This document shows, piece after piece, positions 4,828 to 26,100 of a stretch of DNA of 39,040 nt. The notes under the pieces are model-generated. The model worked only from the letters and a program-made list of their open reading frames with translations, made no database searches and was not told the origin of the DNA. Location of the stretch: positions 1 to 39,040 of the forward strand of contig SOIY01000229.1 in the NCBI GenBank assembly GCA_004376785.1, given 5' to 3'. The first letter of the stretch is position 1; every line of letters starts with the position of its first letter. The stretch is from Candidatus Stahliibacteriota bacterium (GTDB lineage Bacteria; Hydrothermota; Tepidihabitantia; SM23-42). The position numbers and the translations under genes were made by a program.

Positions 4828-4855
4828 TTACCGCTTGTCAAGCATTTTTTTTGTG

Positions 4856-5163: not shown

Positions 5164-5243
5164 TCTACACTCGAACAACGGTGCTGGTTTAAAAAGTACA
5201 GCATTAGTGGGAATACCCACCCATCATCTTATGTGAGTGTAGA
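5164..5243. repeat. 9-bp perfect inverted repeat enclosing 62 nt
   Basis: TCTACACTC (5164-5172) pairs with GAGTGTAGA (5235-5243). Inner hairpin GTGGG-AATA-CCCAC at 5207-5220. Confidence 0.7.
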
Positions 5244-5632
5244 CCAGTACTTGTCACTTTGTGGATGGTAATGCTTAGGGAGCATTGTAGAAAAATATAT
5301 ATCATGTTGTTGTGATAGTCACGATTCGAACATGACTTCTCTCATTGGTATTCAATCAGCTTTGCACTTTGGTAGTTATGAGATATAGCTGACTACTCAT
5401 ACCTACTACAACAGGTTTTTCTTATTTAGCTAGTGGACAAAGTACGCCATATGTAAAAGCACCTGCAAAGATCCACCATCGGCAGTATTTTTTCGCCTGA
5501 TTTTTAACTACAGTTCTTATTGGTATCAGCCAAGAACTTGTCACTACCCGTCAGAAACAGGTGTGTACGTTAAGAAGGGCAGACGTAGATGAAATAACCC
5601 TCTACGATTTTTCGAATTAACCAATGAACATA

Positions 5633-5661
5633 ATATTACCCATAGCTATACTATATCACAA
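5633..5661 (-). promoter_or_regulatory. sigma70-like promoter candidate inside the gene-free region
   Basis: On the minus strand: TTGTGA (5656-5661), 17 nt spacer, TAATAT (5633-5638), pointing towards 4705. Such matches are common by chance in AT-rich DNA. Confidence 0.2.
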
Positions 5662-6040
5662 ATGTATAGATATATACACCATAAATATGAATTCTGCTTC
5701 AATCTCTAAACTCCGTGAATAGATGTAAACAGAATAACCGCAGAGCTCGGTTTATAAATTTTCTGTTTTGTATCAACTAATCACTCATATTTAAAAATGG
5801 TATTTACTCTTCGATAGGGCTTGGAACCCTATAGATAAACAGTTTCAAAACCATACAGATTTTTACTAATGGATTATCTACGCTTTCAGAGCAACGAATA
5901 GCCATCCACAAGGGTATATAAATCTTTATGTATGAAAGTTCTTTCTTATCTCCATAAAGATTATTAAACAACCGGTGATTAACAGCTCAGTTTCAGATAC
6001 GCTCAGCTTACAGTCATAGGAGCACCAGTTTGTTTACAAA

Positions 6041-7429
6041 TTAACTATTTAATACCTTGTTTAGATATTTTTTGTTCTTAATATATTGCAAAGTTATTTG
6101 TATTAAGTCTATTCTATTGTTTAACTTTTTATTTCGTGTTACACGTTCTGTTAGATAGCTTAATAAATTATCGACCTCCTTTCCGGGTGGAATATTAAAT
6201 GTATCAATAATTATACGGTTGTTAATGTCAATAGCAATTCCTGAACTATCTTTACTATCAAACACTTTTTTTATCCGCTTTTCAAAGCAGATTTGTTTTG
6301 GCGTTACGGGATTTTTTTTTAATCCGTTACCTAGCCTCTCTGCTGCTCGGAGCTTAAATAATGGTAATTCACTAAGGTTTTTAATGTTATTTTTATTTAT
6401 TCCAACTCTCTTAATAAATCTCCTAACAGCAGCATTTGTAAATTCATTAGTATAGTGATACATGTGCATACGGACTAGATCTAAAACTGATTCTTTTGTT
6501 TTACCATCATACCTTAACCTGTTCAAAAAAGTCTGCGCTCTTTTTACACTGGCTATTTCGTGTTTATAAAAGGTTACTCGCCCGTTTATCATCTTCCTAG
6601 TGTCCGGTTTTCCTACGTCATGTAGTACAGCAGCAAGGCGGAGCACTAAATCGACCTCGATATTATCACATGTAAGAATATTATGAGTGAATACATCATA
6701 CTTATGATATCTCGCGTCCTGTGTCACACCCGCACATCTACTTAATTCTGGCATAACATAAACCAGCAATCCAACTTTTTGTAATAGTCTTAAATAAACA
6801 GATGGTTTACTGCTAAGTAGTATTTTATTTAATTCTTTGCGAATATCATCAGGGTATGCCCATGTTATTCTATGTCTATATTCTTTTATGAATCCCATTA
6901 AGTTCTTATTAATCTTATAACCAGTCAGTGCTGATAATGAGATAGCTCTTAGTATTCTTATTGGTGACCCGTTGCAAAAATGCGGAGTTGTATAAGATAT
7001 AACACGTAATTTAATATCATTTAATCCACCCAGTGGATCTATTACATCTTTCTTTGATGTAAAATTTATTGGTAAGTACAATGCATTTATTTTAAAATCT
7101 CTACATTTAGAATCCTGTCTGAGTGTGTTATTTTTATCGATAATATGTGACTTACCTCTTCTTGGTAAGGATATTTGTGCTTCTCTATTATCATTAGAAG
7201 CTCTGAATAATATAGTCTTCTGTTTAAAGATGTCGTCTGATTTAACTATCCTACATTTCCCATGTTTTCCAAGAAAATTAATTATTACATCTTTATTTAC
7301 CTTACGAATAACTATATCTAAGTTATTGCTTTTCTTATTACGTATATAATCTCGAACAAAACCACCAGATAAGAACACTTCTGCTTTCGTCTCGTTTTGT
7401 AAAAGCTTTAGTGCTTGTCGTGTGTCCAT
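6041..7429 (-). CDS. class-II tRNA nucleotidyltransferase (CCA-adding / poly(A) polymerase family) with HD domain
   Basis: SGGFVRDYIRNKKSNNLDIVI (GGxVRD head motif), RDFKINALY (RRDFTINA-like), SPIRILRAISLSALTGY (DPLRxLRAxRF-like), AAVLHDVGKP (HD motif). Confidence 0.85.
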   Translation of the reverse strand: MDTRQALKLLQNETKAEVFLSGGFVRDYIRNKKSNNLDIVIRKVNKDVIINFLGKHGKCRIVKSDDIFKQKTILFRASNDNREAQISLPRRGKSHIIDKNNTLRQDSKCRDFKINALYLPINFTSKKDVIDPLGGLNDIKLRVISYTTPHFCNGSPIRILRAISLSALTGYKINKNLMGFIKEYRHRITWAYPDDIRKELNKILLSSKPSVYLRLLQKVGLLVYVMPELSRCAGVTQDARYHKYDVFTHNILTCDNIEVDLVLRLAAVLHDVGKPDTRKMINGRVTFYKHEIASVKRAQTFLNRLRYDGKTKESVLDLVRMHMYHYTNEFTNAAVRRFIKRVGINKNNIKNLSELPLFKLRAAERLGNGLKKNPVTPKQICFEKRIKKVFDSKDSSGIAIDINNRIIIDTFNIPPGKEVDNLLSYLTERVTRNKKLNNRIDLIQITLQYIKNKKYLNKVLNS

Positions 7430-7459: not shown

Positions 7460-7726
7460 TTATGACATTTTACTTATATAATCGGTCATTAGTTTTTTGT
7501 TATTTAATTTATCTTCTATTTGATCTACTAAAGTTTTGACTACATTGTGCAAATCTTCTCTCATTTCATTAAGTATAGTTTTAGCAAATTGATACGGTGC
7601 ACAGTTATCCTCAGAGCATTCCTGACCATTTGGTTGCTGAACGCATGCCTTACAAGCATGATCTTCTCTTGCTATAACTCTCCATTTACATACTGCTGCT
7701 ATTTTTTTGAATTCCATTAGAATCAC
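7460..7726 (-). CDS. Cys-rich hypothetical protein
   Basis: 88 aa from a GTG start; an in-frame ATG lies at 7717. Contains CKWRV...HACKACVQQPNGQECSEDNC. Confidence 0.5.
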   Translation of the reverse strand: MILMEFKKIAAVCKWRVIAREDHACKACVQQPNGQECSEDNCAPYQFAKTILNEMREDLHNVVKTLVDQIEDKLNNKKLMTDYISKMS

Positions 7727-7732
7727 ACCATC

Positions 7733-8086
7733 CTATATATTTTTTATATTTCTAAGTTTTTTTAATGCTTCATCTATATGATGGTAAGTAAGGTGCTCGA
7801 CCTTAAGAATATTTATAACTTTATCTACCTCCTCCTGTTTTTTAGATTTTACAAAGACATTATTTGGGTCACTATCATCAGCAATAATAGTAGGCGTTTC
7901 AAGATTAGTTTCTTCACCGGTGTCTTCATTATGAATAGAAATATAACCAATTGTATTTACATAATCACTACCATCAGTATCACCTTGCCCCTGTTTTGCC
8001 AGGTGGATAGCATCGTCAATATCTTCAGCGGTAAGACAAAGATAAGAATGCCATATTTCTTTAGTGGTAATACAATATTCAGGCAT
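7733..8086 (-). CDS. acidic hypothetical protein
   Basis: 117-aa ORF. Its start overlaps the stop of the sigma-factor gene (ATGA-type junction). Confidence 0.55.
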   Translation of the reverse strand: MPEYCITTKEIWHSYLCLTAEDIDDAIHLAKQGQGDTDGSDYVNTIGYISIHNEDTGEETNLETPTIIADDSDPNNVFVKSKKQEEVDKVINILKVEHLTYHHIDEALKKLRNIKNI

Positions 8087-8898
8087 TATAGACCCTCTTT
8101 CAGTTCATCTTTAAACCTGTCTCTCATCTTATCTATTTGCTGTTTTACCCAAGGTCCGGTCCTTTTCGGTATTTGCTCATAACCTATCTCTTTGTATGTT
8201 TTATTAGCCATTATACCTTCAGCTATAGAAAGTTCAGTCTCTGTCATATAGTCCTTTAATTTACTAACTAACAGAGCAGCAGCTACTAGCTGTTTTTCTC
8301 TAAGGAATACTTCTTCCTGGGAGATCTCGTCTTCATCTAAACTTACTGCCGTAGGTATATGTTCCGACCTATCTATAATTCTTTCATAGGGTATGTTTAT
8401 ATTCTTTGATAAGCGTTTTAACTTTTTGAAGAATTTATTACACTCGGCTTTATCATTTTTGGTAACCGCTTCATTGTTTACCTCTCCACTAAGTAGTACA
8501 TCTTGTGAATCGATATTATACTTACTCAATATAAATTTGATGCCGTTTATATACACATTTGCAGTTTTAACATACGAAGGAATGCTAACAATTGTTCTGT
8601 TTTCTCTGTAATAATCATTTAAAGCATTCTTAATCTTATAAATCGCAAATGTTTTAAAGTTATCACTACGGGTATGATCAAAGTCTCTTTTTGCTCTTGC
8701 TAATCCTATCAAAGCCGTTCCGAATAAATCTTCTTTGTCTATACCAGACCACATGGAATAGCCGCCTGCCATAATATTTAACAGTTTTGAAAAGTCACTA
8801 AATACAGCTTCAGCTTCTTCTGGTGTTTCACCTAGATAATAATCAAGAAAAACTTCTTCTTTCTTTTTAACTGGTGATTGGGTTATTATATCTACCAT
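8086..8898 (-). CDS. sigma-70-family RNA polymerase sigma factor
   Basis: DLFGTALIGLARAKRDFDHTRSDNFKTFAIYKIKNALNDYYRENRTIVSIPSYV aligns with sigma region 2.1-2.4 ([37 protein letters not shown]...ARTIRIP). The C-terminal TYKEIGYEQIPKRTGPWVKQQIDKM looks like a region-4 HTH. Confidence 0.85.
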   Translation of the reverse strand: MVDIITQSPVKKKEEVFLDYYLGETPEEAEAVFSDFSKLLNIMAGGYSMWSGIDKEDLFGTALIGLARAKRDFDHTRSDNFKTFAIYKIKNALNDYYRENRTIVSIPSYVKTANVYINGIKFILSKYNIDSQDVLLSGEVNNEAVTKNDKAECNKFFKKLKRLSKNINIPYERIIDRSEHIPTAVSLDEDEISQEEVFLREKQLVAAALLVSKLKDYMTETELSIAEGIMANKTYKEIGYEQIPKRTGPWVKQQIDKMRDRFKDELKEGL

Positions 8899-9896: not shown

Positions 9897-10595
9897 TTAT
9901 CCAGCAACATATCCAATTCGCTTCTCCTTAGTTTTTTCCTCCTCTTGCTTTTTACTTGGTACAACATCAGACTCGTATTCGCCAGCTGCAATCATTAACA
10001 CTTTCTTCTTCATCAGATTAAGCGCTTTAACTCCTGGTATATCATCACCTCGTTTAAATACAGTAGGTATTTTGCGTAATTCTTCCTGCCGTTTCTCTTC
10101 CTTTTCTCTCGTTTCTTTCTTCTTTTCCCATTCACTTGTACCACTACTGTACTGGTATGCATTATTATGGAAACAATTAGCTGGTTTTACTTTTTTAATT
10201 CCACCAGGGAGGTCTGTATAATTATACACATCAATAATCTCCGGATCGTTCTTAACCATTCTTTTATCCTTTGTCAATCTATCAAGAAAATCTAATAACA
10301 GATTGCCAGCTTTTTTCTGATCAGCTTCATGTGATTTAAAAAGTGCTAGTTCTTTTGTATTATCACATCTTGAGCTTATTGACATAATATTAAAATTGTC
10401 AAGGTTAAGAGCATGTATGTTGTTCTCGCTTCTTTCTTTCTCGATTAGGACATACGAAACAATCTCTGGATTCTCCGTAGCGCCGTTTGATCTTATTTTC
10501 ATACCTTTGAACAGACCGTACTCTACAGATGTTGTATTAGTGCCCCCTTTCTTTAAGAGTTCTACAGCAACAAATCTAATTTTGGACTGACTCAT
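9897..10595 (-). CDS. hypothetical protein (232 aa; charged KE-rich C-terminal third)
   Basis: ORF coupled to the GNAT gene by a 4-nt overlap. No motif recognised. Confidence 0.6.
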   Translation of the reverse strand: MSQSKIRFVAVELLKKGGTNTTSVEYGLFKGMKIRSNGATENPEIVSYVLIEKERSENNIHALNLDNFNIMSISSRCDNTKELALFKSHEADQKKAGNLLLDFLDRLTKDKRMVKNDPEIIDVYNYTDLPGGIKKVKPANCFHNNAYQYSSGTSEWEKKKETREKEEKRQEELRKIPTVFKRGDDIPGVKALNLMKKKVLMIAAGEYESDVVPSKKQEEEKTKEKRIGYVAG

Positions 10596-11020
10596 TTGAT
10601 ACCCCCACTCCTTCCTAGTGTTAAGACATAATGATTTCTTGACCAGATTTTATTTACAAAAACATAACCAAGTGATAAGTTCATTTTAATACTTGGTATA
10701 TTATCTTCCCTTACTGTTGAGAAAATATAACTTGTATCACAGTTTTGGATAGCCAGAAGTTTTAGCTTCTTGGCTATCCCTCTTCTACGAAACTCAGGAC
10801 TGACACATGTATGGAAATTCCTGCTTAAATTTTCTTCTTCCTTTATTAACGCGGTGCAACCTACTACTCTGTCATTTACAACCTCTACAAAGTAGTTAGC
10901 TATACTACTTAACACGGAGTATGCAGTATGTTTTCTATACAGCTGATTATGTGCGTTTATTAAACCAGCTATTTGCTCAGCCATTTCAGTGTTAGATAGT
11001 GATACATAAAACTCAGCCAT
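10592..11020 (-). CDS. GNAT-family N-acetyltransferase
   Basis: VVGCTALIKEE...FHTCVSPEFRRRGIAKKL is a GNAT motif A (V-x-P-x-x-R-G-x-G-I-like acetyl-CoA pyrophosphate loop). The start shares a base with the stop of the ATP-grasp gene. Confidence 0.7.
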   Translation of the reverse strand: MAEFYVSLSNTEMAEQIAGLINAHNQLYRKHTAYSVLSSIANYFVEVVNDRVVGCTALIKEEENLSRNFHTCVSPEFRRRGIAKKLKLLAIQNCDTSYIFSTVREDNIPSIKMNLSLGYVFVNKIWSRNHYVLTLGRSGGIK

Positions 11021-12132
11021 TAACCAAACATCCTTTGAGCAACCTTGTTCACAGCATCTTTCTCTGAGTCATCACCGCAGTTATCCAGCATATCTGCAAG
11101 CATTCTCAGCTTTTCCGGATCTATTTTACTGCCCTTCTCAGGTTTCTTTTCTCCCTTTGATAATACTCCTTTGATTTTAGACAGCACTTTACCACCTTTT
11201 TCGGGCTTCTTAGGGCTAAGTATGTCATCGATCACCTTCGTGAATGTTTCTACATACTTCTTGAACGATGTTCCTTCCAGTCCAGGTCCTGTGTTGACCT
11301 CTATGATCCATGCTTTACCTTCAGTGTCCACTACACAATCAACAGCACCAAATTCAAGTTCTAGCGCTCTTAATGCTTTTATACTCTCAACAATCAGATC
11401 ATGTGGTATGTTCTCTGGTTTTACCGATGAGAATTTCCAGCCACGTGTATTGGAACGCACTATGTTGTCAGCGCCAGCAATTTTTTTGCCCTGATATTCA
11501 AGTGCATACTTCAATGTCTCGTCGTTAAGATCAACCCCTTTCTTTTCAGCCATACGTCTGATCTTGTCACTCTGTTGCTCGATGTATGCCTCAGTTAAAT
11601 TATTTCTTCTTTTCTTTTTAACTGCATAAATCAGATTGTCCAAAACTATATGAAGTCGGTATTCTTCTTTTACATCAATATAATTCTGGAAATATCCTTT
11701 TTTACTGAGTTTATTATTTAACACATCAATAACGTCATCAACATGTGTTTTTGTTAAACAGGTGAAGAAATTAGCCCCACCTTGGTGGTAGTTGGTTCTA
11801 CCTATTACCGGCAACGCCATCGGGTTTTTGGTTGCTGCCAAATCTTTCATCACATTTTCTGCCGAAGAAAACGGAGCTATATTTACCTTAGCGGCACGCA
11901 TTAACTCCAAAGCAGTAAACTTATTCCGGTTAGTTCTGATTTTGTTAGGGTGATTCAACACTTTGGCTTTACCGAGGTCGATATTTTCCTTAGTTTTGGT
12001 GCCCCATCCTATAACTATTGCTTTGGTTTTGCCGGCAGATTTTACACCACCTTGAATGTCCAGCGCTTTTGCCAATAACCCACCAGTCTTGTCTGTTGCT
12101 CCACTGTAATTAATATAAACATTATTTTTCAT
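11020..12132 (-). CDS. RimK-like ATP-grasp ligase
   Basis: EYRLHIV, then LEFGAVDCVVDTEGKAWIIEVNTGPGLEGTS, close to RimK LGLDVAGVDIL...LVMEVNASPGLEGIE. KE/KG-rich C-terminal tail. Confidence 0.85.
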   Translation of the reverse strand: MKNNVYINYSGATDKTGGLLAKALDIQGGVKSAGKTKAIVIGWGTKTKENIDLGKAKVLNHPNKIRTNRNKFTALELMRAAKVNIAPFSSAENVMKDLAATKNPMALPVIGRTNYHQGGANFFTCLTKTHVDDVIDVLNNKLSKKGYFQNYIDVKEEYRLHIVLDNLIYAVKKKRRNNLTEAYIEQQSDKIRRMAEKKGVDLNDETLKYALEYQGKKIAGADNIVRSNTRGWKFSSVKPENIPHDLIVESIKALRALELEFGAVDCVVDTEGKAWIIEVNTGPGLEGTSFKKYVETFTKVIDDILSPKKPEKGGKVLSKIKGVLSKGEKKPEKGSKIDPEKLRMLADMLDNCGDDSEKDAVNKVAQRMFG

Positions 12133-12202
12133 TTGTCAAGTCTCCTTTAGCATTTTTTTAAGTTTTATTTTTCTGGATGAATTTTAACATTCGACCATGA
12201 TG

Positions 12203-13507
12203 TTAAATATCAACTGTAAATTTCTTGCTTCCCAACCAGTTTTCTTTTATATTCCTATTCCATTTGTTAATGTTAGGTATCGGTATGGTTAATATTTCCT
12301 TTAGACCATCTATATATTTTGAATACTTATTATACGTAGATAGTTTCCTCATCTTATTATGCCAATTAGATAAAAAGGTTTTGTCAATGTCACTACTTTT
12401 GGAATTATTTAATATTATTGTCAACTCTTTAGATGACATGCAGGTATTAGTATCTTTACAAATAGGTAAATTGTGCCAATCCTTAAACGAATCTGCAAGG
12501 AAGTAATCCCTTGGCCGGTCTGCATACTTTTTAGGTACGATATATCCATGATTAAAGTTCTCATTTGCCCATCTTTTAAAAACATCATCAGTAATTGCTT
12601 TAGCTGTACCTATTACGCATTTAGCTAGTGATGGGTGCATTAACCACATCCCACTCAGTGTTCTGTGTTCTAATCTTCCATCACATGTTCTCCATTCTCC
12701 AAAGTACCCCCAGCCGCCTGTAATACTCATTTGACATTGAGTTCTTCTTTTGTTTCCCATGTCATTGTCTAAACGTATACATGGAATGGCTAATAATTCG
12801 TCCATGATTTTGTTTAGAACATTAAAAAACATCTCTCTCTTACTCAACGTCATTTGAGCTACTTTCAGCGGATTTCCAATGTGAATATGTCCGCCCATCG
12901 GATAATCTCTGCTGTTATCTTTGTGATAACAACCAGCTACCCAATTATATTTAGTAATTGGACCGGTAAGTTCTTTATTAGAGAAAATAGATCTGATATT
13001 TTTTATTAATCCCTCAGGTGTTATAGATGGTTCAGGCCTAATTTCTGCCATAGCCCCATCACATCCTAGGACACCATGTTTACCCATAAGGTTGTTTGCT
13101 CTGACTACATTACCGTCTTTATCAAATAATAAAAATTCAGGATCAGCGCCTATTACCGTATCATGGACGCCTGTAGAAATCCACACGCTCTGTTCGTTTT
13201 TTCCATTAGTAATTCTATTCCATATTTTTGTTGTAACGAAACCTACTCTGTTCATATCCACATTTTTAGAGTCTTTGATCCCGTTTAAATCTTCTGAATA
13301 AGCATGAAATATGTTAAGTAAGATAGCACTTTTCTTACGGTCAGCGGCAGTATCACCTGCTGACCATATTTCTACCTGGTCTTCAGTAAATTTCATGAAT
13401 TGTCTAGCTTTTTTTGACATACGAATAAGATTACTTTCATCTCTGTTTTCTTTCTTATTCTTATCCATTGAACTAGACGGCAGTAGAATTAGCTTTTTCT
13501 TGGTCAT
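12203..13507 (-). CDS. phiEco32-type COOH-NH2 ligase (glutamine synthetase/GCS-fold amidoligase), copy 1
   Basis: IGADPEFLLFDKDGNVV, GCDGAMAEIRPEPS, MGGHIHIG and RLEHRTLSGMW. The same motif order occurs in 18673..19830 and 32959..33867. Start placed at the ATG at 13507, preceded by GGGAG; the longest ORF starts at 13519. Confidence 0.75.
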   Translation of the reverse strand: MTKKKLILLPSSSMDKNKKENRDESNLIRMSKKARQFMKFTEDQVEIWSAGDTAADRKKSAILLNIFHAYSEDLNGIKDSKNVDMNRVGFVTTKIWNRITNGKNEQSVWISTGVHDTVIGADPEFLLFDKDGNVVRANNLMGKHGVLGCDGAMAEIRPEPSITPEGLIKNIRSIFSNKELTGPITKYNWVAGCYHKDNSRDYPMGGHIHIGNPLKVAQMTLSKREMFFNVLNKIMDELLAIPCIRLDNDMGNKRRTQCQMSITGGWGYFGEWRTCDGRLEHRTLSGMWLMHPSLAKCVIGTAKAITDDVFKRWANENFNHGYIVPKKYADRPRDYFLADSFKDWHNLPICKDTNTCMSSKELTIILNNSKSSDIDKTFLSNWHNKMRKLSTYNKYSKYIDGLKEILTIPIPNINKWNRNIKENWLGSKKFTVDI

Positions 13508-15290
13508 TTTGGCTCCCAATTTCTATCTTTATTTTCTTTAATAGAATAACTTTTTCCATGTCTCCTACAGAAAATGCGTCTGAAAGAGCTTCGTAATCAA
13601 GCTTAGTATCTTTTACTTCGTTACTGACGAGTTTATCTATATTTGCTCCGCCTATCTCAAACGCCGATTTGTCAACAATTGAACTACCCAATTTTATAAC
13701 TGTTTTTAAGGTAGATATCTTTTTTGTAGCTTTTCTAAGTTTCCTAATAAGGACCCTAGTTGCATCAGTTCCTCCTATAGTTTCTTCCTCACCTTTTCTG
13801 CATATATAACCAGCCATGAATCCCTGTTTTAATATAAACTTCTTAATCCTGTTGGCTAAAGCATAGATAGGTAATGGTTTTAGAACAGATACATCAGATA
13901 GATCTAATTCATCTGCTACTTCCTCATCACTTTCATATTTTACTATACCTTCTCCAACAAAACTGTCAGCTTTCTTAAGTGCCTCAGGATCCTGACTCAT
14001 ATCTACCTCCCTTATTGTAGCCTCTTCGTTTTTTTTATGCTCCGTTAATTTAGCCTTAGAAGTAACAAGGTTTTCTACCTTACCTTCCTCAATTTCTGTT
14101 ATATCTATACTATTTACTACTTCCTTTTTACCTGAGGATTCTATTTGGATTATTTCACCTTTTTTTACTTCTATTTCGACTGATTTATAGACTTTAGTTT
14201 TTTCTATATCTTTTTGAGTTTTATATTTGTCCAGCGATTTGCTCCAGATTAGCCCGTCTATGTCTTTATCCTTATCTTTGTCTTTATCATCTTCTTCTTC
14301 TTTCTTATGTACACTGGTGTTCACTTCAGTATTTTTTTTGCTATTCACTCCCTGATAATGGTTATAGTTGTTATTATTATAGGTAGTGCTAGTGGTTCTC
14401 CAGATTTTCTTACCAAGAAGAGGTGCTTTTTCAGAGTTATATAAATCTCTTATTGAGGTTTTACTATCAATCTCTGTAGTCAAATCCCACAACGCAACAG
14501 TATCATCAGGAAGTGTGACGAAATCAACATCTTCTTTTTTGATATACGGAAGTTTAATCCCTCCAGAAGAAAATAATTTTCCCAGTTTGTTATATTCAAA
14601 AAGAATATTCTTTAGGAATTTCTCTTCTGAAGCTATAAATACTGTCTTTAGCGGTCTTACTAACACCATTTCGGCAGGTTTAGTATCTCTGAACTGAGCT
14701 ACCTGAAATGGATTGTTACCTGATATTGCTAGCACAGAATAGGTTCCTTGAAGCCTTCTACAAGTTTCTCTCAGCGCTTCTATTGTAAATGGTTCAGCCC
14801 CGTTTTTGGTATATTTGTGTAAAAGATGCGTAATAGCCTCAGTGTCAACCTCTGCATGTCTTTTACAATTGAGTTTGTCAAATATTATATCGTGGTTTGT
14901 TAATGTCCCATTGTGAATAACCATCATATTATCAACTTTTATAGGGTGGTTATTTTTATTATCATAGGAGTTACCTACTGAAGATTTCCTACAATGACCT
15001 AGAAAAACCTTCATAATTTTAGGATATTCTCTCCATAACTTTAGAATTCCTTCGTAATTTTTCTCAGTTTCACCGTACCTTGCTATAAAATCTGGGGCAG
15101 GTATGCCCATTTTCAACCCAGTGTAATTGCCATCAGACCAAAGTAATGATACACCAGTAGCATCTTTACCTCTTTCAACAGTTTTTTGGAGTAGCTGAGT
15201 TGTAATAAAAATAGACGACTCTCTTCTAACTCTTTCATCGGTTTTTGATTCAAATTTATCAAAGGCTAGTGCCCCTACAATTCCGCACAT
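13473..15290 (-). CDS. class-II (Ntn) glutamine amidotransferase domain protein with long C-terminal extension
   Basis: N-terminal MCGIVGA (catalytic Cys2), GHCRKSSVGN...NNHP and VIHNGTLTNHD match GlmS/PurF/AsnB-type GATase_2. About 300 further residues include an EEEDDKDKDKDKD tract. Confidence 0.8.
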   Translation of the reverse strand: MCGIVGALAFDKFESKTDERVRRESSIFITTQLLQKTVERGKDATGVSLLWSDGNYTGLKMGIPAPDFIARYGETEKNYEGILKLWREYPKIMKVFLGHCRKSSVGNSYDNKNNHPIKVDNMMVIHNGTLTNHDIIFDKLNCKRHAEVDTEAITHLLHKYTKNGAEPFTIEALRETCRRLQGTYSVLAISGNNPFQVAQFRDTKPAEMVLVRPLKTVFIASEEKFLKNILFEYNKLGKLFSSGGIKLPYIKKEDVDFVTLPDDTVALWDLTTEIDSKTSIRDLYNSEKAPLLGKKIWRTTSTTYNNNNYNHYQGVNSKKNTEVNTSVHKKEEEDDKDKDKDKDIDGLIWSKSLDKYKTQKDIEKTKVYKSVEIEVKKGEIIQIESSGKKEVVNSIDITEIEEGKVENLVTSKAKLTEHKKNEEATIREVDMSQDPEALKKADSFVGEGIVKYESDEEVADELDLSDVSVLKPLPIYALANRIKKFILKQGFMAGYICRKGEEETIGGTDATRVLIRKLRKATKKISTLKTVIKLGSSIVDKSAFEIGGANIDKLVSNEVKDTKLDYEALSDAFSVGDMEKVILLKKIKIEIGSQNDQEKANSTAV

Positions 15291-15310
15291 ATATTTTTCT
15301 CCTTTAAAAG

Positions 15311-16255
15311 TTAGTAATCGGTAGTATTGGCAGTATTACCTGTACTTGTTATGTATACTCCGTGATTATGTGATGGATATGACGTTACAGGCTCTATTAT
15401 TGGCTGTGATGGTACCTCTCCACCTGATTCATAATTTATATGAAACTCTTTATCTTTTTTGTCTCTTGATTGTTTTTTACTTTTTAATTTTAAGTTGTCT
15501 TTCTGAATCGGCAAATTATTTTTGATCTGTGATTTAATTTCTTTGTATAAACTATTTTTTACTTTGTATTCTTGATCTATCGTAGCGCCATCAATCGTAA
15601 ATAAATTATCACTGTAATTAGATACTATTATATCTACCCTAAAAGTGTTAACTTGTTTCCCAACCAATTGAGAATGTTTACGAAGTGTTTGTGTAAATGA
15701 AATTCCTAGACCATCAACTTTTTTTAAATTAAATAACGGTATACAATGTATGAAGTCAAAAAATGATATAATACTTAACAAATTATCGTTTTTTCCAGAT
15801 AAAAATCTATTACCATAAGTATTAAAATGAAATAAAGAGGAATGTTTATACTCTCTTACGATTGATTTTATAGAATCCATCATAGAAAAACCTGCCGCTT
15901 TTTTATTAGATATAAATGATACACCACCATGCTCTTTCACAGATTTGATTATAGTACTAAATTGACTATAATCAAATTCATCTATATTTTTTACTTTATG
16001 CGTTTCACAAAGAGGTGTTTTATCTACAAATTTTAAAATATTTTCCGGCAGCCATGTATAACCACAGATAGTGCTAGCTCTTGCTGGGAATACATTGATA
16101 CACGCTAATGTTCTTTGTTTTTTCACAGCGACCATAACTGGCGCACCACAAGGTAAATGATCGTAGTTTTGTGTTAAAATAGCATAAGCAATTTTACAGT
16201 CATCTGTAAAAAACTCTCTGTTTTTTGTACCTAGTATTGTGTCACTTCTTAACAC
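15311..16255 (-). CDS. hypothetical protein embedded between the two GATase-II genes
   Basis: 314-aa ORF. No motif recognised. S/T/N/P-rich C-terminal tail (...SGGEVPSQPIIEPVTSYPSHNHGVYITSTGNTANTTDY). Confidence 0.6.
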   Translation of the reverse strand: MLRSDTILGTKNREFFTDDCKIAYAILTQNYDHLPCGAPVMVAVKKQRTLACINVFPARASTICGYTWLPENILKFVDKTPLCETHKVKNIDEFDYSQFSTIIKSVKEHGGVSFISNKKAAGFSMMDSIKSIVREYKHSSLFHFNTYGNRFLSGKNDNLLSIISFFDFIHCIPLFNLKKVDGLGISFTQTLRKHSQLVGKQVNTFRVDIIVSNYSDNLFTIDGATIDQEYKVKNSLYKEIKSQIKNNLPIQKDNLKLKSKKQSRDKKDKEFHINYESGGEVPSQPIIEPVTSYPSHNHGVYITSTGNTANTTDY

Positions 16256-16271
16256 TTTAATCTCCTTTATA

Positions 16272-17066
16272 TTATGGCTTTAGAACAAATTTACTCATGG
16301 TTTTAGCAAATAAATTAAATGCCACACCCATACCACTTATTACCTCTATCTCTATTGGATCACCTAAGTAATCCTCGAAAGGTTTTACAGCAGTTAAAAT
16401 AAAATTTTCTCTGGTAGCAAATAATATAACTTTAACAGCTGGATAATATAATATCCTAATTGGATTACCGCTTCTGAATAAGAACAGGTTGTAAGGGGAA
16501 TCAATATTTAATAAAGCACACGCATATCCACCTTTGATATGTCCAACTGTTTCTCTTATAGATTTTATAGTCCGGTTACTGCCAAAACGCCTTGTAAAAT
16601 GCGATACTAATTGGAAAATAATTTCAGTATCTACCCGAGCGATACGTGTTATATTTTTCCTAAATTTATTAAATAATTCATCATCATTAGCGATCACACC
16701 GTTATGTACGCCTACAATATTCTCTACTACAATTGGATGATTGTTGTAATTATTTTCTGGACTTCCTTTGGTTGGCATTCTACAATGACCAATCATAGAC
16801 TTTAGATGATCACTTGAGGTCTCATCTTTTCCAACCCTCATGTGTTTATCTGCAAAATCGAGATAATCTTTATCTTTTGTAAGCATAGAGCCAGCTAAAG
16901 GTCTACGTATAACTTCTGTTGAGCGGCTTTTCATAACAGCTACACCACTAGCAGACCTCCCGTTTACCTCGGCCTCTTTAAGAAGGGTAGCCATTATAGC
17001 TTTTACTGTTGCAGTATCATCTAATGTATGCTCTTGGAAAAGACCCATACCGAAAATTGAACACAT
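16272..17066 (-). CDS. class-II (Ntn) glutamine amidotransferase-like protein
   Basis: MCSIFGM (Cys2), IGHCRMPTKGSPENNYNNHP and GVHNGVIANDDE. Stand-alone GATase_2 domain of 264 aa. Confidence 0.8.
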   Translation of the reverse strand: MCSIFGMGLFQEHTLDDTATVKAIMATLLKEAEVNGRSASGVAVMKSRSTEVIRRPLAGSMLTKDKDYLDFADKHMRVGKDETSSDHLKSMIGHCRMPTKGSPENNYNNHPIVVENIVGVHNGVIANDDELFNKFRKNITRIARVDTEIIFQLVSHFTRRFGSNRTIKSIRETVGHIKGGYACALLNIDSPYNLFLFRSGNPIRILYYPAVKVILFATRENFILTAVKPFEDYLGDPIEIEVISGMGVAFNLFAKTMSKFVLKP

Positions 17067-17077
17067 TCACAACTCCT

Positions 17078-18676
17078 TTATATTAATGACATGGAGCCGA
17101 TACGATCTAACCATACCATCTCTCCATCGTTCTTTTTAGTATTAATGAATTCAGATACTCTATCATCAATTACCTGATCATTGTCTTTATTAAGTAATAA
17201 GATAACTGCTTTAAGCCATTCGTCTTCATTTTTACACTGATCCACTAATCTTAGATCAATTATTTCAGTTAGCTTAGCAATAAATACATCTTCTGTGGTC
17301 ATCACTACCTGTAAATCTTTTTCAATAGTTTCCCAAGTATCACCATCGCATCTTCTAATACCACATGGACGTTCTGCAAGTTTTTCTAATACTTCATATG
17401 CCGGCCCAGTTTTCATCAGAATATGCTTTATTTGGGAAATTAAATCGAAGGACTCTGAGATTAGCACATCATAGTGTTTTGATAGACCGCTTGTATCACT
17501 AAATCTATCGCCAGAATTATAATCTTTCATGTTGTTCATCAAATCTCTTTTTATTCCTTCCGCTTTTTCTATCCAATCCTGACCGCCTACTTCTACAACA
17601 CCATATCTGGATATTTCTATGGCTTTAATCATCATAGCGTAGTACAAACATGATACAGCTGCTATTGCGCTCGGTGATAGTAAACAATCCATCACTCTTA
17701 GCTCTACGTGAAACCGTTTTACATCACCTTTTTTGGTAAAAGTGCAGTTGTTGTAATTTACCCAACCGTATTTATTTCCGCCCGCATTCGACGAAACGTC
17801 TGCTTTTACCTTTGACATATTATTTAACACTGCAGATATGTTAAGTACTGATACTCTGTATTTTTCCCATCTAGTTATACGCTCCGGCTCATCCAAACCA
17901 ATGGTCATCCAAGTTATGGCATTTTGATATCTCCGGCATAGTTGATGAAAATTAGCCAGTATAATTTCTGGCATAGCTTTTTCCATCTCATCTATTTGAT
18001 TAGGTACACCAGGACTGCCGCTACTACCAGCAATTTTTCCATAATAGCTAGCCAATAAATGCGCATGGATGCTAGTTCTTTCGTTAACATATGCCCCGTT
18101 CTTAACTGCCAAATCTATAATTTCTTTTGACATTTTAAAGAACTCCCAGTAGTCAGGTCTCCTACCAACTGTTATTACTTCAGCTCCTTTCTTTCCGAGC
18201 AAACTTCCGTCAGTTGTAATACTATGGACACCGTGTTTGGTAAGTGAACCATAGCTATGTGAAGGAGTTAGAAAGTTATTCATTCTTTCTCTGATATGGT
18301 CTGGATTTCTTTCTGGATCGAAAAGATTTTCACAGGACTTACAATCTACTTCAAATTTCTCGCAAATTATACATTTGCTAAGAAATCCAGTACAAAATAT
18401 TCCATGACAGATAAAATTTTTCCCTCGTTCAGCTTTACATGTGTCAAATCTGATACAGTCTTTCCAGCAATTAGATTCAGCCATGTGTTTACATGGACAA
18501 GCGTTGTTGTTTCCTTTACAGGTACCATTCTTATTTGGCAAATTAAATTCATACTCCAAGCCAATCTTTAATATCTTATGAAGCATATGTTTCCAATATC
18601 TTACATCACCTGTATTTATTGCTTCCTTAGAGGGATGAACATAAAATGTCCATTTATCTCTGTTATCTCTACTCAT
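17078..18676 (-). CDS. Amidoligase_2-type (glutamine-synthetase-like) amidoligase with Cys-rich insert
   Basis: KIGLEYEFNL (metal-binding E-x-E strand), TTDGSLLGKKGAEVITVG, SIHAHLL and RFHVELRVMD follow the GS-like amidoligase motif order. About 18 Cys lie between residues ~47 and ~125. Confidence 0.7.
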   Translation of the reverse strand: MSRDNRDKWTFYVHPSKEAINTGDVRYWKHMLHKILKIGLEYEFNLPNKNGTCKGNNNACPCKHMAESNCWKDCIRFDTCKAERGKNFICHGIFCTGFLSKCIICEKFEVDCKSCENLFDPERNPDHIRERMNNFLTPSHSYGSLTKHGVHSITTDGSLLGKKGAEVITVGRRPDYWEFFKMSKEIIDLAVKNGAYVNERTSIHAHLLASYYGKIAGSSGSPGVPNQIDEMEKAMPEIILANFHQLCRRYQNAITWMTIGLDEPERITRWEKYRVSVLNISAVLNNMSKVKADVSSNAGGNKYGWVNYNNCTFTKKGDVKRFHVELRVMDCLLSPSAIAAVSCLYYAMMIKAIEISRYGVVEVGGQDWIEKAEGIKRDLMNNMKDYNSGDRFSDTSGLSKHYDVLISESFDLISQIKHILMKTGPAYEVLEKLAERPCGIRRCDGDTWETIEKDLQVVMTTEDVFIAKLTEIIDLRLVDQCKNEDEWLKAVILLLNKDNDQVIDDRVSEFINTKKNDGEMVWLDRIGSMSLI

Positions 18677-19830
18677 ATTAAAGCTCCCATCTGTTTGTCA
18701 GTTTTATACCAGTTTACTTCCATATCTGGAGAACATTGTATCCCCGACTCCACATATTTAAAATATTCATTTATAGAATCAGCCCTTTTCTTGTATCCTA
18801 CCATCTTTTCAATACCAGATCTTATATTATCGTAGTAAGTCATTGCCAAACTAGTATCTATACTACATATGATAGAGAATATTGTCATGGCTGATGGAAT
18901 GTCTGGATATAATTCTAGCATATCTTTATCCGTTGATACATAATCTAATTTAGTAAAATTATCTGTACAATGTTTAATACGACTTACTACATCCTCTATA
19001 ACAGTTGCCCCTATACTTATTATACCGTGTGTCAGTACTGGATGCTTCATCAGTGCTGCTCCAGGTACTCTATATTCAAGAGTTCTATTATCTAGTCTAT
19101 AATTGCCTGGTTTACCGTAGGCCAAATAAGGAGTAGTCCTTCTGTAATTATCGTCCTTCCCCTCTGGAAGTATAGAAGGAACTCCTATGTAATAATCTAG
19201 TATCTTTACTATTTGGTCTGCTATCTTAATCTTTTTATAACCTAGTAATTCATTTGGGAGGCCATAATGTAAATGAAAACCGGCAGTGATTTTCTTATAG
19301 GAAGATACTGCTGTTATCATTATGTCAGGGTCATTTATTTTTTGTCTAGCTTGTTTTAACATGTTGAAGATGTGAGATACAACTACATTTTCATCGGTGC
19401 TTGGTAATGGCCTAAATTCTAACAGTAAACCATCACACCCGACAGCGTCCCATTTCTTAAAGTATTTACCTGCAGTTACTATACCAGCATCTTTCTTATC
19501 TACTAGTATTAATTCCGGATCGCAGCCGAGCGTTATATTATCTACGAGTTTTACTTCACAAACATTAGAAGGACTATTAGTTAACAATTCAAATATTTCA
19601 TTAGTAACATATGCAGAGGATGAATTATCTTCTACATCCTCTTCATAGGCCTTCTCAATAGACAAAGAAACTATACTATCATCAGTGGCTCTCATGTTTA
19701 AAAAACCGCCCAGGCGTATGTCTAATGCTTTTCTAAGATCTTTTGGAATTCTGATTACTTTTCTCTCTGTTAATCTTTCTTCACGTATCTTATCCTCCAT
19801 TAATTTAGAAGGGTTAATTATTAATTTCAT
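18673..19830 (-). CDS. phiEco32-type COOH-NH2 ligase, copy 2
   Basis: LGCDPELILVDKK, GCDGLLLEFRPLPS, AGFHLHYG and LEYRVPGAALM. 4-nt overlap with the downstream amidoligase gene. Confidence 0.75.
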   Translation of the reverse strand: MKLIINPSKLMEDKIREERLTERKVIRIPKDLRKALDIRLGGFLNMRATDDSIVSLSIEKAYEEDVEDNSSSAYVTNEIFELLTNSPSNVCEVKLVDNITLGCDPELILVDKKDAGIVTAGKYFKKWDAVGCDGLLLEFRPLPSTDENVVVSHIFNMLKQARQKINDPDIMITAVSSYKKITAGFHLHYGLPNELLGYKKIKIADQIVKILDYYIGVPSILPEGKDDNYRRTTPYLAYGKPGNYRLDNRTLEYRVPGAALMKHPVLTHGIISIGATVIEDVVSRIKHCTDNFTKLDYVSTDKDMLELYPDIPSAMTIFSIICSIDTSLAMTYYDNIRSGIEKMVGYKKRADSINEYFKYVESGIQCSPDMEVNWYKTDKQMGALI

Positions 19831-23113: not shown

Positions 23114-26100
23114 CTATACAAAACTGTTATTTCCACCGAGACATATCCCAGTGGTACGATTCTTAGATAATTCTTTTTGACCTTCTACCATTACATTGTG
23201 AGCATCATCGCTTATAGTATTAACAGTTAGCACCCTCTCAACGTAGTCCATAAGAGTTTTGCATGCGTCACGTTTATCTACGTCCTTAATAGTAGTTATT
23301 GTGTCATTATCCATAAAATCCTCAAGGACAGTCTTAGCATTATCTGATTTTCCACTCATAATAGTTTTAAGAATCTTACTTGGTGTATCTACCGCATCGG
23401 CGTCAAGATGATCGAGCAGTTGACATCCTTCTAAGTTAGCCCTGCTTGCAAAGTAAATCTTATTTTCTTTACGAACTATACGATTTATAACGTTGCTCCA
23501 GCCTTTCTCTTTAGCCTTTTGATGGTATGAATACAGATTATATATACCAACGTCTGCTGCTTTCTTCTTAATAATGTTGCATATTATAGCAGAGGTTTCG
23601 CTGGCGAATCCATGTTTGACCAGCATCTCAACATCACCGGTGCAGATTGCATCCATTACTATAGAATGCAGAGAAAGTACACCATGCTTCTGTTTAAACA
23701 CAGTATTACCTACCCGATCTAAAAATACTTCGATGGCAATGTTTACCTGTTGGTCATCTCTAACCTCAGAGTTTTCCAGTATACGCATTATATTATATGA
23801 TAACGCAATTACAGGACCGGTATGACTCTTAACACCTGTAGCTTTATCTACTAGGCCGGCGAGTGTATCAGCAGTAAGATCTCCGAACATTGTTATGTTA
23901 TAAGCGTGTAATCCAAAACAGTTAGTTTCAGGAACACCTGCTTTATTGTTTAACTGCTGAATAACCTCATAACACATCTTATTAGGTTCTTCCCACTCTT
24001 TTCGTAATAAAGCAACAGCTTCTTGTGTATGAAATGATGCCAGATAGATGACATCACCATCGAAATCTAAACCAAGAGAACATAAGTTGTTGCCACTGAC
24101 TCTGATGGTATATTTACATAAATCATCGTGTGTGACTCGTACCTTCTGAGGCCGGATAGACATAAAACCTAAGCATGGGAACCTTTCAACTAGCACTACA
24201 TCCCCATTGGTTACTCGCAAAGTTTTGGCCATATTCCTGTGTATCTCTATAGTATTTTCTGGCAGTCTGTTGGATAATGTAGCTACTGCTTTTGCAGAGA
24301 ATGGGTATCTTACTGACATTCCTAGTTGCGATATGTCACCACGTTTGGTGCCTAACATTTTAGATACCTTTGCGAAATAGGTATAGACTGAATTGTATAG
24401 CATCCGAATAGCTATAGCATTCTGAGGATCGGCCAAATATCTATGAGACATTACTAACATGTTATTAACTAGCACGCCTATCTCATTCAAGCCGAACTTA
24501 CCGTTGTCATGCTTCCAGCATTTTCTCATGCTAGATTTTGGTATATATATTTTATCAAACACACGAACTTTTTCAGATATTAATGTTCCTATTGTTATTG
24601 TTGCTGCGCCTTCGTGGATAACTTCACCATCATCATCAAGAGTCACCTGGTATGTTATAGGTAACTGCATGATAAATCCATCAGGCGCAAAGTAATCGTC
24701 CACAATAGTATTTTTGATATACTCTTCGTCCACTATAGTTCCAGCTGATTGATCCACATACTTCAGGTCTTTAGTTTGATACGTTGGAACATCTGGTGGC
24801 AACTCACCACGTTTTGATCTTAGAACTTTAAGATTTTCATGTATGTTGTCACTACCTTGAGCGTATGATAGGATCTCCGTTAGTAGAGCATTATCCTTTC
24901 CAAATCTAGTTTCTAATGCTCTCATTTCTACGTGTGATAGTTTTAAGCCAGCCCGTCTAAGTCCTTTAATATCTCTTCTGATAGTAGCATTCTCATCCCA
25001 TAGAGCGTTCTCTACACTTGCTATTACCCCCCAGAAAACTTCACCGCAGACACCTTCTAGCTTGCCCATGTATGTCTCACAAGACCATGTACCATCCCCT
25101 GGAAGATTATTCATTGTTAATATCTTACTCACATAAGACATATCTACTTGATAATCATCAGGTATTACTGTAGGTCCTTCCTTCGTGTTATTCAGAAGTG
25201 CTTCTAGTATCTGCCCGAAGTTCTTTCTTTTCTTTATTGATTTAGCAGATACAATTACATCAATCTTTCTTGTCTTGCCGGTCCTTGGATCGATAGCATA
25301 ACCAAGATCTTTCATCCTGATTACACCCTTATTGCCATGCAGATTAGTGATCTTTACGCCGTCTCTGAGATTACGTTTGTATTCTATTATTACATTGAAT
25401 ACTTCCGTAATTGTTCCACCTACGTTGGTCGCAGACTTAGTAATCTTTTTCACTTTTGCCTTATCACAATCAATATCAAATTTCTTAATGGTACCGGCGT
25501 TAGATGTAGATAGAATTTGTCCTTTTCTTATTAACTTTCCTTTGTGGACATGGAGTTTGTCGAAGCATTCGTATCTCTTCTCATATGTTATATACTTATT
25601 CCTATGTTGTAAGTCAACCATAATTTGGTCTTCAAAAACATCAGGAATATCGACAAACAAGGTAAATAGATTCCATCCTTTACGTGTAATACCTTGGTCC
25701 ATCAAATCCTGCATGGCCTGCGATCTAACTTTTGGTAATTCATCCCCCTTCATCCCTAACGTAGAATATAAATTTCGCTGGGGATTATGATAATGTATAC
25801 CGAATGGGGTTAGATGACGGATATCACGCATTAAGATATAATTCTTATTAGCTAAGCTACCATCAGCTAAACCGATTGAAGTCCATCCTCTATCAAAATA
25901 GGCTTTGTTCTTCTCAATCTGGTAAGATAAGCGTTCTTCTGGACTTTTAAGCTCATCAAATACAGGATCAACTATTACTAACCTTCTGTTCATTACCCAG
26001 CTATTAAGATAAGTCTCGTGCAGGGGCATCTTATTTATTATTTCATTAATTGCCCGTTGTAAATTGTATACAATTGTGGAAGTGTTGCCATTATTATATG

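Follow-up and report, generated by a model that had tools for sequence, protein, structure and literature searches.

What do phages make with a run of genes given over almost entirely to amide-bond chemistry? The question is posed by contig SOIY01000229.1 (assembly GCA_004376785.1, deposited as a Candidatus Stahliibacteriota bacterium), of which we analyzed positions 1 to 39,040, hereafter the window. Within it, nine minus-strand genes at 9897-19830, which we term the block, comprise g1 to g8 (within 10592-19830) and g9 (9897-10595). The block is an enlarged and strongly elaborated form of the known phiEco32-type amidoligase cassette, which was predicted in 2009. Far from being a mobile accessory island, it is a phage-restricted, fixed core module in a clade of very large phages that is so far uncultivated. 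Together with a second gene cluster upstream, it most likely encodes one ATP-driven phage pathway that builds, and then trims, a gamma-glutamyl-type amide conjugate. The nine genes are as follows (aa, amino acids; GS, glutamine synthetase; GATase, glutamine amidotransferase; Ntn, N-terminal nucleophile).

18673-19830, minus strand: g1, COOH-NH2 (GCS2/YbdK-type, GS-fold) ligase of 385 aa (Pfam PF14395, 7.6e-22).
17078-18676, minus strand: g2, predicted divergent GS-fold ligase of the Amidoligase_2 superfamily, 532 aa (structure and profile evidence).
16272-17066, minus strand: g3, stand-alone class-II (Ntn) GATase-fold protein of 264 aa (Pfam GATase_6, 9e-12).
15311-16255, minus strand: g4, fast-evolving protein of 314 aa with no family match.
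13473-15290, minus strand: g5, class-II (Ntn) GATase with a linker and a helical domain, 605 aa (Pfam GATase_6, 3.8e-10).
12203-13519, minus strand: g6, second COOH-NH2 ligase, 438 aa from a TTG start or 434 aa from an ATG start (Pfam PF14395, 1.2e-25).
11020-12132, minus strand: g7, RimK-family ATP-grasp ligase of 370 aa (Pfam RimK, 1.5e-8).
10592-11020, minus strand: g8, minimal GNAT acyl/acetyl-transferase of 142 aa (Pfam Acetyltransf_1, 1.2e-7).
9897-10595, minus strand: g9, conserved protein of 232 aa that overlaps g8 by 4 nt (positional conservation).

The interval 10592-19830 is filled by eight co-directional open reading frames (ORFs), with intergenic gaps from g1 to g8 of -4, 11, 16, 20, -47, 70, and -1 nt. 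For g6, a start at ATG 13507 is likelier than one at TTG 13519 because its orthologues align from residue 4-5 onward, and the ATG start reduces the g5/g6 overlap from -47 to -35 nt. Such close packing is not peculiar to the block: flanking genes are spaced just as tightly in this AT-rich window (GC content of 30-39%), where nearly all transcription runs from the minus strand. A promoter and terminator scan of the window gave counts equal to the shuffled expectation, and operon boundaries are not callable.

Six of the eight genes g1 to g8 pass the Pfam gathering score (COOH-NH2_lig twice, GATase_6 twice, RimK, and GNAT), and PHROGs agrees with the Pfam assignments of the block genes. The original prediction, which was read from the sequence without database searches, had seen here a 9-kb block of amide-bond enzymes, and that block is real, statistically secure, and larger than first described: the per-ORF Pfam search returned COOH-NH2_lig, GATase_6, RimK, and Acetyltransf rather than unrelated families, g2 joins the six through its fold and profiles, and the synteny is recurrent. 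Two of its counts need correction. It placed four GS-fold ligases in the block, whereas the block holds three, along with two GATase-type enzymes, one ATP-grasp ligase, and one acetyltransferase; the fourth lies at 32959-33867, so that four is the number per window only. It also counted eight genes, whereas g9 belongs to the block as a ninth member because it is conserved in the same position at every complete related locus examined.

The phiEco32-type amidoligase cassette is said to have been predicted by Iyer, Abhiman, Burroughs, and Aravind in 2009, who reportedly proposed peptide ligation for these families (as cited in PMC2938197). Its order in the phiEco32-like phage SU10 is COOH.NH2 ligase, hypothetical protein, amidoligase, 676-aa GATase, ATP-grasp, and GGCT (gamma-glutamylcyclotransferase), then primase/helicase; the LUZ24-like phages have the same gene set plus an AIG2/GGCT gene. 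In its enzyme families and in their relative order the block agrees with these cassettes (SU10 gp078-gp090, the LUZ24-like phages, and Salmonella phage 7-11), and like them it is phage-borne and placed in the early/replication module. The order g1-g2-(g3, g4)-g5-(g6)-g7 parallels that of SU10, and the shared components are a COOH-NH2_lig protein (PF14395), a GS-fold amidoligase, an Ntn GATase with a long non-synthase extension, and a RimK-like ATP-grasp enzyme. Direct blastp comparison with SU10 pairs g5 with the GATase gp085 (676 aa; 1.2e-9) and g7 with the ATP-grasp protein gp082 (1.6e-16), and g1 and g6 also match proteins of the SU10 cassette directly. The phiEco32-type affiliation that had been proposed from the sequence is thereby borne out. 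In SU10, proteomics placed the cassette proteins among the early gene products.

The block departs from the phiEco32-type arrangement in several respects. Its COOH-NH2 ligase is duplicated, and both copies (g1 and g6) are extended by an N-terminal barrel domain; g2 has diverged beyond the Pfam model and gained an insert with 12 cysteines; and a second, short Ntn GATase (g3), the GNAT protein g8, g4, and g9 are present besides. GGCT lies inside the SU10 cassette, whereas none occurs within 9897-19830, and the corresponding gene, of the GGACT (gamma-glutamylamine cyclotransferase) type, is ~10 kb upstream at 30158-30565, where it and a canonical ligase form a separate cluster with two Peptidase_C26 enzymes. 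As to what the phiEco32-type cassette does, the literature searched offers annotation-level mentions and reports no product, substrate, target, or phenotype, in line with what the original prediction had stated. A related gene set was observed in Leptolyngbya phage Lbo-JY46 (L009, 13801-30571), where a canonical ligase, GGCT, a C26-like protein, an ATP-grasp enzyme, and an Ntn GATase directly follow genes for PncB (nicotinate phosphoribosyltransferase) and PrsA (phosphoribosyl pyrophosphate synthetase).

Among 50,697 GenBank phages, neither megablast with the block nor tblastn with g2 and g6 (1e-5) gave a match, and tblastn with the flanking RNA polymerase (RNAP) gave none at 1e-3. Metagenomes, in contrast to this collection of phages, contain more than 540 homologous clusters of g2 at 52-86% identity, on contigs of up to 330 kb; long clade contigs include JGI Ga0613763_0052 (329,815 bp), IMGVR_UViG_3300009285_010109 (268,764 bp), and NCBI SDBV01000002.1 (230,231 bp). 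In IMG/VR, a scan with the g2 alignment yielded 8 contigs, and a scan with g6 alone yielded none. The order RNAP-helicase-g1..g8-g9-RuvB-sigma-CCA-adding enzyme is found again at each of the complete related loci that we examined (JGI, ENA, NCBI, and IMG/VR), and the block is therefore not a chance assembly. Averaged over 16 loci, the identities to the window are these.

Helicase, 53.5%; g2, 52.8%; RNAP, 52.4%; RuvB, 51.2%.
g6, 47.2%; g7, 45.7%; g8, 42.9%; g1, 41.3%; g5, 41.0%.
g3, 33.6%; g9 (232 aa), 28.5%; g4, 25.4%.

The signature gene g2 (52.8%) is thus as conserved as the RNAP, helicase, and RuvB genes, a level that speaks for an essential function during infection and against an accessory gene set. 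A cellular origin of the block was considered and rejected: g2 occurs in 4 of 185,579 species-representative genomes, all of them metagenome-assembled genomes (MAGs) from unrelated taxa (Muribaculaceae, Patescibacteria, and Woesearchaeota), and these four occurrences are best read as mis-binned phage contigs. Clade contigs L010, L011, and L013 lie inside Muribaculaceae, Patescibacteria, and Woesearchaeota MAGs, and because binning contamination is likely, these labels are not usable as host evidence. In locus L007, an HNH endonuclease gene (7724-8530), probably that of a homing endonuclease, has been inserted in reverse orientation after the helicase gene and before g1.

The signature gene is also the one that evades family models. 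We found no Pfam, PHROG, or NCBIfam match for g2, and Pfam remained empty at E<=10 across 21 family members. PF12224 (Amidoligase_2) matched neither g2 nor its 20 orthologues (E<=10) nor 18 members of a shorter sister subfamily (E<=0.01), Pfam Pup_ligase did not match g2, and a PDB sequence-profile search with g2 returned nothing significant. An AlphaFold (AF2) model of g2 built from 21 homologues (predicted local distance difference test [pLDDT] of 73, predicted TM-score [pTM] of 0.72) retrieves by Foldseek, among PDB structures, glutamine synthetase, PafA, Dop, YbdK, and gamma-glutamylcysteine synthetase (E down to 2e-5, probability 1.0). Its best BFVD matches are overwhelmingly phage proteins named "Amidoligase enzyme" (E of 2e-6 to 1e-3), including proteins of Pseudomonas phage tf and of Cronobacter and Aeromonas phages. 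When 1.84 billion representatives were searched exhaustively with a profile, only 238 relatives of g2 came up, among them the ~430-aa sister subfamily, which is without the N-terminal insert and aligns by hhalign with the SU10 amidoligase gp086 (probability 90.6%, E of 1.3e-6, 147 columns); the g2 family aligned directly with gp086 matches at the DGSL...E...H.H core only (E of 0.0016, probability 16%). The earlier assignment of g2 to Amidoligase_2 accordingly failed the formal Pfam test, but the Foldseek, BFVD, and sister-subfamily hhalign results suggest that it is right at the superfamily level.

Alignment of g2 orthologues shows invariant E41/E43, D156-G-S-L, E166, H204/H206, and E325/R327. 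Just after the first catalytic strand lies an insert of ~70 aa with 12 invariant Cys residues, modeled with low confidence, that is probably zinc-binding. Toward PafA (4bjr) and Dop (9cku), which with g2 share the fold of GS-type carboxylate-amine ligases, the model has Foldseek probabilities of 0.99-1.0 but sequence identities of ~10% and TM-scores of ~0.3, and pupylation differs further in that neither a Pup-like protein nor a proteasome or Mpa-like ATPase is present here. In another phage lineage (L022; JGI Ga0193592_1000079, 146 kb), a shorter g2-like ligase of 436 aa without the Cys insert has among its neighbors two Ntn GATases, RuvB, endonuclease V, MazG, and an HD_4 protein.

The other two GS-fold ligases of the block, g1 and g6, are paralogues (blastp, 1.2e-23) in whose orthologues the motifs DPE, DG..E.RP, G.H.H.G (H.H), and E.R are invariant. 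Both have an N-terminal domain of ~95 aa that canonical phage COOH-NH2 ligases do not have. Its profile matches PDB entries of double-psi beta-barrel (DPBB) designs derived from the N-domain of a VCP-like ATPase (E of 1.7e-5), and g1 alone has a weak Pfam match to MazE/AbrB (0.0069); the domain is of the cradle-loop-barrel type (AbrB or VAT-N DPBB-like). Cradle-loop barrels variously bind DNA (AbrB), bind proteins (VAT-N), or merely dimerize. A search for a free-standing barrel domain among the small ORFs of the upstream cluster (hhalign with the g1/g6 profile) was negative.

Both g3 and g5 have class-II GATase_6/GATase_7 Pfam matches and begin with MC, with Cys2 as the Ntn nucleophile. The motifs Cys2, HCR, NNHP, HNG, and DTE can be read in g3, and the g5 alignment has invariant C2, H99-C100-R101, N113-N114-P116, H126-N127-G128, and D149/E151. 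The H-C-R, N-N-H-P, H-N-G, and D-(S/T)-E motifs correspond to the residues with which GlmS-type glutaminase domains hold the alpha-amino-acid end of glutamine and build the oxyanion hole. The best NCBIfam matches of g3 are the N-domains of GlmS, PurF, and AsnB together with EgtC, all sub-threshold. g5 consists of an Ntn domain of ~300 aa, a variable, disordered, low-complexity linker, and a helical C-terminal domain of ~150 aa; it matches phrog_4736 (1.1e-21) and, best among PDB profiles, the glutaminase domain of GlmS (6.9e-8), with Pfam, PDB, and NCBIfam matches covering only residues 1 to ~230. We rejected a fused enzyme of the AsnB, GlmS, or PurF type for g5, which has no SIS, phosphoribosyltransferase (PRTase), or Asn_synthase domain. 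The original prediction had the class-II GATase fold of g3 and g5 right but over-read them as amide-nitrogen donors, since neither has a synthase domain. Given this lack, the retained glutamyl-binding residues, and the two C26 enzymes and gamma-glutamyl cyclotransferase elsewhere in the genome, they could equally be gamma-glutamyl-amide hydrolases, as EgtC is.

The last two enzymes of the block are g7 and g8. g7, preceded by an AAGGAG-type ribosome-binding site, matches phrog_2599 (2e-35) and ends in a Lys/Glu-rich tail; its NCBIfam scores are 44.6 bits for rimK_fam (1.1e-11), where the cut-off is 143.4, and 17.8 bits for PRK10446, where it is 331. In g8, the acetyl-CoA motif R-x-x-G-x-A reads RRRGIA, and the best NCBIfam match, RimI (3.9e-6), is sub-threshold.

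The two remaining genes resist assignment. g4 has only 12 homologues, ranges from 260 to 520 aa among lineages, and retains 22-29% identity where g2 keeps ~53%; its variable, low-complexity, Tyr/Thr-rich C-terminal tail (15311-15500; SY..YYTTT in most lineages) is gone in L007, and the whole gene is gone in L011. No Pfam, PHROG, NCBIfam, or PDB-profile match was found for g4, and its AF2 model (pLDDT of 43) was unusable for a fold search. g9, which has a positional orthologue behind the GNAT gene at each of the complete related loci examined, matches nothing in Pfam, PHROG, or NCBIfam, and its best PDB-profile match (2zw2, E of 0.096) was set aside as chance level. When the g4 and g9 profiles were compared by hhalign with every unassigned protein of SU10, the Leptolyngbya phage, and the window, all probabilities were below 2%, and the two genes are therefore without a counterpart in the canonical cassette.

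The window contains further amide-bond genes outside the block, most of them upstream of it in a minus-strand segment at 28975-33867 that we call cluster 2 and that is probably part of the same system.

32959-33867, minus strand: canonical short phiEco32-type COOH-NH2 ligase of 302 aa (phrog_3815, 2.1e-57; PF14395, 4e-6).
32208-32957, minus strand: Peptidase_C26, class-I GATase-fold protein of the gamma-glutamyl hydrolase type, 249 aa (Pfam, 2.2e-25).
30558-31961, minus strand: conserved protein of 467 aa with no family match, between the C26 and GGACT genes.
30158-30565, minus strand: gamma-glutamyl(amine) cyclotransferase, AIG2/GGACT, 135 aa (Pfam GGACT, 6.9e-21).
28975-29688, minus strand: second Peptidase_C26, class-I GATase-fold protein of 237 aa (Pfam, 4.8e-22).
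1569-2438, minus strand, outside cluster 2: short RimK-like ATP-grasp ligase of 289 aa (phrog_2599, 2.6e-16; ATP-grasp_3, RimK, and TTL, ~1e-5).

Cluster 2 is syntenic in loci L024 and L025, in both of which the C26 gene at 32208-32957 likewise adjoins the ligase gene; the second C26 gene was found in L024 and L019, and the GGACT gene, whose product matches SU10 gp078 GGCT by blastp (3e-4), in L024. By tblastn, the canonical ligase matches 316 GenBank phages, with Kuravirus, LUZ24-like phages, and 7-11 among them. The 467-aa protein, with no match in Pfam, PHROG, or NCBIfam, has 27 homologues that share a conserved C-terminal half, and it occupies the same place in L024 and L025. The ATP-grasp ligase at 1569-2438 lies far from both clusters but matches g7 (blastp, 1.8e-8) and SU10 gp082 (9e-9), and it is a possible further component of the system. 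Cluster 2 also includes two small conserved proteins with acidic ends, at 28112-28471 (119 aa, ...VQEIE) and 29692-29991 (99 aa, ...PDLEE); their L024 orthologues end in ...VQEIE and ...PSLEA, and a partial L006 orthologue ends in Glu. These proteins, of which few orthologues were seen, might be carriers or substrates for C-terminal ligation. Just past cluster 2, and syntenic in L024 and L025, is a gene for an SLT lytic transglycosylase with LysM (35838-36845).

What might such an inventory make? By family, the ATP-dependent carboxylate-amine ligases of the block amount to at least four (three of the GS fold, one of the ATP-grasp type), a number that implies several ligation steps and so agrees with the multi-step assembly foreseen in the original prediction, and one conserved segment has three enzymes of gamma-glutamyl-cleaving families (two C26 and one GGACT). 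In PuuA/PuuD and EgtA/EgtC, a GS-fold gamma-glutamyl-amine synthetase has a GATase-fold hydrolase as its partner, and in butirosin synthesis a GGCT-fold enzyme takes off the gamma-glutamyl protecting group. What the genes here share with the putrescine (PuuA/PuuD), ergothioneine (EgtA/EgtC), and butirosin (BtrJ/BtrG) pathways is the combination of GS-fold or ATP-grasp gamma-glutamyl ligases, class-I (C26) or class-II (Ntn) GATase-fold amidohydrolases, and a GGCT-fold enzyme; EgtC is among the NCBIfam matches of g3 and g5, and C26 is the PuuD family. The likeness is at the superfamily level only, far under equivalog cut-offs, and differs from those pathways in its phage context, its many more ligases, and the lack here of a decarboxylase, oxidase, or sulfur-transfer partner.

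The pathway that we consider most likely would be expressed together with the replication and transcription genes. In it, g1, g2, g6, and the canonical ligase at 32959-33867 would use ATP to convert a carboxylate to an acyl phosphate and join it to an amine, and g7 would add an alpha-linked amino acid, probably glutamate. g3 and g5 would bind glutamine or a gamma-glutamyl moiety and either pass ammonia to a ligase, turning a carboxylate into a carboxamide, or hydrolyze a gamma-glutamyl amide. The two Peptidase_C26 enzymes and GGACT would remove gamma-glutamyl groups, following the "protect and deprotect" logic of PuuA/PuuD, EgtA/EgtC, and BtrJ/BtrG, and g8 would cap a free amine. The gamma-glutamyl groups may be transient or permanent building blocks, and the product would serve genome replication or packaging. 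These reactions, the order of the steps, and the identity of the substrate are what we infer from the enzyme families and their neighborhoods; our leading candidate, at somewhat less than an even chance, is a small molecule bearing an amine (a polyamine or amino-acid conjugate, for instance). The GGACT and C26 enzymes, and the canonical cassettes, which are free of the added domains, pull toward a small molecule.

Several observations weigh against this pathway as drawn. The barrel domains, the 12-Cys insert, and the disordered tether of g5 would be unusual in enzymes that act on small molecules; they suggest a setting that involves DNA, protein, or a multi-enzyme complex. The family matches of g3, g5, g7, and g8 fall far under NCBIfam equivalog cut-offs, and for that reason substrate specificity is not transferable from the named families. 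For g3 and g5, ammonia donation and hydrolysis are both compatible with the sequence, and g4 and g9 have no place in the proposed steps.

The barrels of g1 and g6, the Cys-rich insert of g2, and the tether of g5 argue instead for a macromolecular or complex-bound substrate, and DNA is one such candidate. Ligases acting after replication might extend or amidate carboxylate- or amine-bearing side chains of nucleobases, giving for example an amino-acid-appended thymidine, a possibility that we rate as rather unlikely; equally doubtful is its consequence, that an amide-linked hypermodified base would shield a very large genome from host nucleases. In the broadest version, which we would put no higher, the block and cluster 2 would write a novel multi-step, amide-linked DNA hypermodification, or a covalently DNA-associated polyamine-glutamyl adduct, across the clade of 230-330 kb phages, with the barrel-bearing ligases acting on the polymer and the phiEco32 and LUZ24 cassettes as reduced versions. 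The position of the block between helicase and RuvB, the adjacency of the SU10 cassette to primase/helicase, and conservation equal to that of the replication proteins all favor DNA, and nucleic-acid binding would fit both the AbrB-like barrel (g1 and g6) and the Cys-rich insert (g2). The company of the shorter g2-like ligase in L022 (two Ntn GATases, RuvB, endonuclease V, and MazG) points the same way. Phage thymidine-hypermodification clusters (M6, ViI, PhiW-14, and SP10; Lee et al. 2018, 2021) likewise lie near replication genes, and in metaviromes, genes with amidoligase and glutamine-amidotransferase Pfam domains have been reported beside the 5-HMUDK/aGPT-Pplase2 thymidine-hypermodification genes (Lee et al. 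2021; PMC8989533). In light of that co-occurrence, the nucleic-acid target proposed in the original prediction is no more than possible. The enzymes that define such clusters (5-HMUDK, aGPT-Pplase, and dUMP hydroxymethylase or TET/JBP) were absent both from the window and from the fetched flanks of related loci. Tblastn with M6 gp51 (aGPT-Pplase), gp52, gp53, gp54 (5-HMUDK), gp55, and gp58 (dUMP hydroxymethylase) gave no match at E<=1 in the window and the related loci that it covered, and Pfam scans of ~46 window ORFs gave no match to a known DNA-modifying family. An IMG/VR scan for 5-HMUDK with a four-sequence alignment as the query placed none of the 8 clade contigs in the 78 5-HMUDK loci among the matches listed (80 of 130), which, being pattern-based, is weak evidence. 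The literature searched contains no link of Kuravirus or LUZ24-like phages to modified DNA, and the substrates known for GGACT and C26 enzymes are small.

A protein could be the macromolecule instead. Amino acids or a peptide tag would then be attached to a protein of the phage or the host, such as RNA polymerase, a ribosomal protein, or a carrier, much as in the PafA/Pup, RimK/S6, and LysX/LysW systems, with the Ntn, C26, and GGACT enzymes in processing or removal; we consider this unlikely. PafA and Dop are among the top structural matches of the g2 model, the best named families of g7 and g8 (RimK and RimI) are ribosomal-protein modifiers, and g1 and g6 begin with a domain similar to the N-domain by which VCP/VAT ATPases bind their substrates, but the RimK and RimI scores fall far under the family cut-offs and the barrel may be a mere dimerization module. 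The phage RNAP and sigma factor flank the block, and peptide ligation is what Iyer et al. reportedly proposed in 2009. The small cluster 2 proteins end in acidic residues, yet these ends are poorly conserved among few orthologues; we found no tag-like or carrier-like protein whose C terminus conserves a Gly-Gly-Gln/Glu or EDWGE-type motif, and g4, the most variable member, is dispensable in L011. Modification of the cell envelope, in which peptidoglycan stem peptides or another component would be altered so as to block superinfection, we regard as highly improbable. Peptidoglycan has gamma-D-Glu and iso-Gln amide bonds, and the lytic transglycosylase with SLT and LysM at 35838-36845 lies near cluster 2 in the window and in both syntenic loci. 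Cell-wall modification or secondary-metabolite synthesis is also the suggestion for phiEco32 that a passage of PMC10580990 attributes to Iyer et al. 2009. However, all of the enzymes look cytoplasmic, family scans turned up no signal peptide, membrane protein, Mur ligase, or lipid II-related family in the block, and conservation at the level of replication genes fits poorly in a clade that apparently infects diverse hosts.

The flanks of the block carry replication and transcription genes. Family scans place RNAP and helicase on one side and RuvB and sigma on the other, as the original prediction had it for RuvB, helicase, and RNAP; the single-stranded DNA-binding protein (SSB) that it also named was not found in family scans of the window proteins. 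A single polypeptide of 1123 aa (23114-26485) matches both the Rpb2_6 (beta) and Rpb1_2 (beta-prime) Pfam domains, which suggests a fused, minimal two-barrel RNA polymerase, and a phage sigma-70-region-2 protein is encoded nearby, at 8086-8898. At 6041-7429 there is a gene for a CCA-adding enzyme that has an HD domain, and at 34577-35767 one for an Rnl1-like RNA ligase (phrog_562), a combination that points to a tRNA repair capacity in a window without a tRNA gene. SU10, too, has a gene for a CCA-adding enzyme, located a few genes away from the amidoligase cassette. Scanning the window for Rfam families and for tRNAs gave nothing. Amid this otherwise dense genome, 1.3 kb at 4705-6040 is without a coding-strand ORF of >65 aa, a tRNA, or an Rfam family and contains a perfect 15-nt inverted repeat (4728-4742 and 4813-4827).

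The canonical cassette occurs in hundreds of cultured phages (316 GenBank records for the canonical ligase alone), and the version described here is the most elaborate in this work, with four GS-fold, two ATP-grasp, two Ntn, and two class-I GATase-fold enzymes, GGCT, and GNAT. Its size, conservation, and extra domains make the long-open question of what amidoligase cassettes do experimentally approachable, and its macromolecule-type domains and cleanly delimited gene set offer concrete constructs for heterologous reconstitution. Were the product an adduct on DNA or protein, it would represent a new class of phage macromolecule modification; were it a metabolite, the block and cluster 2 would constitute a new virus-encoded biosynthetic pathway.

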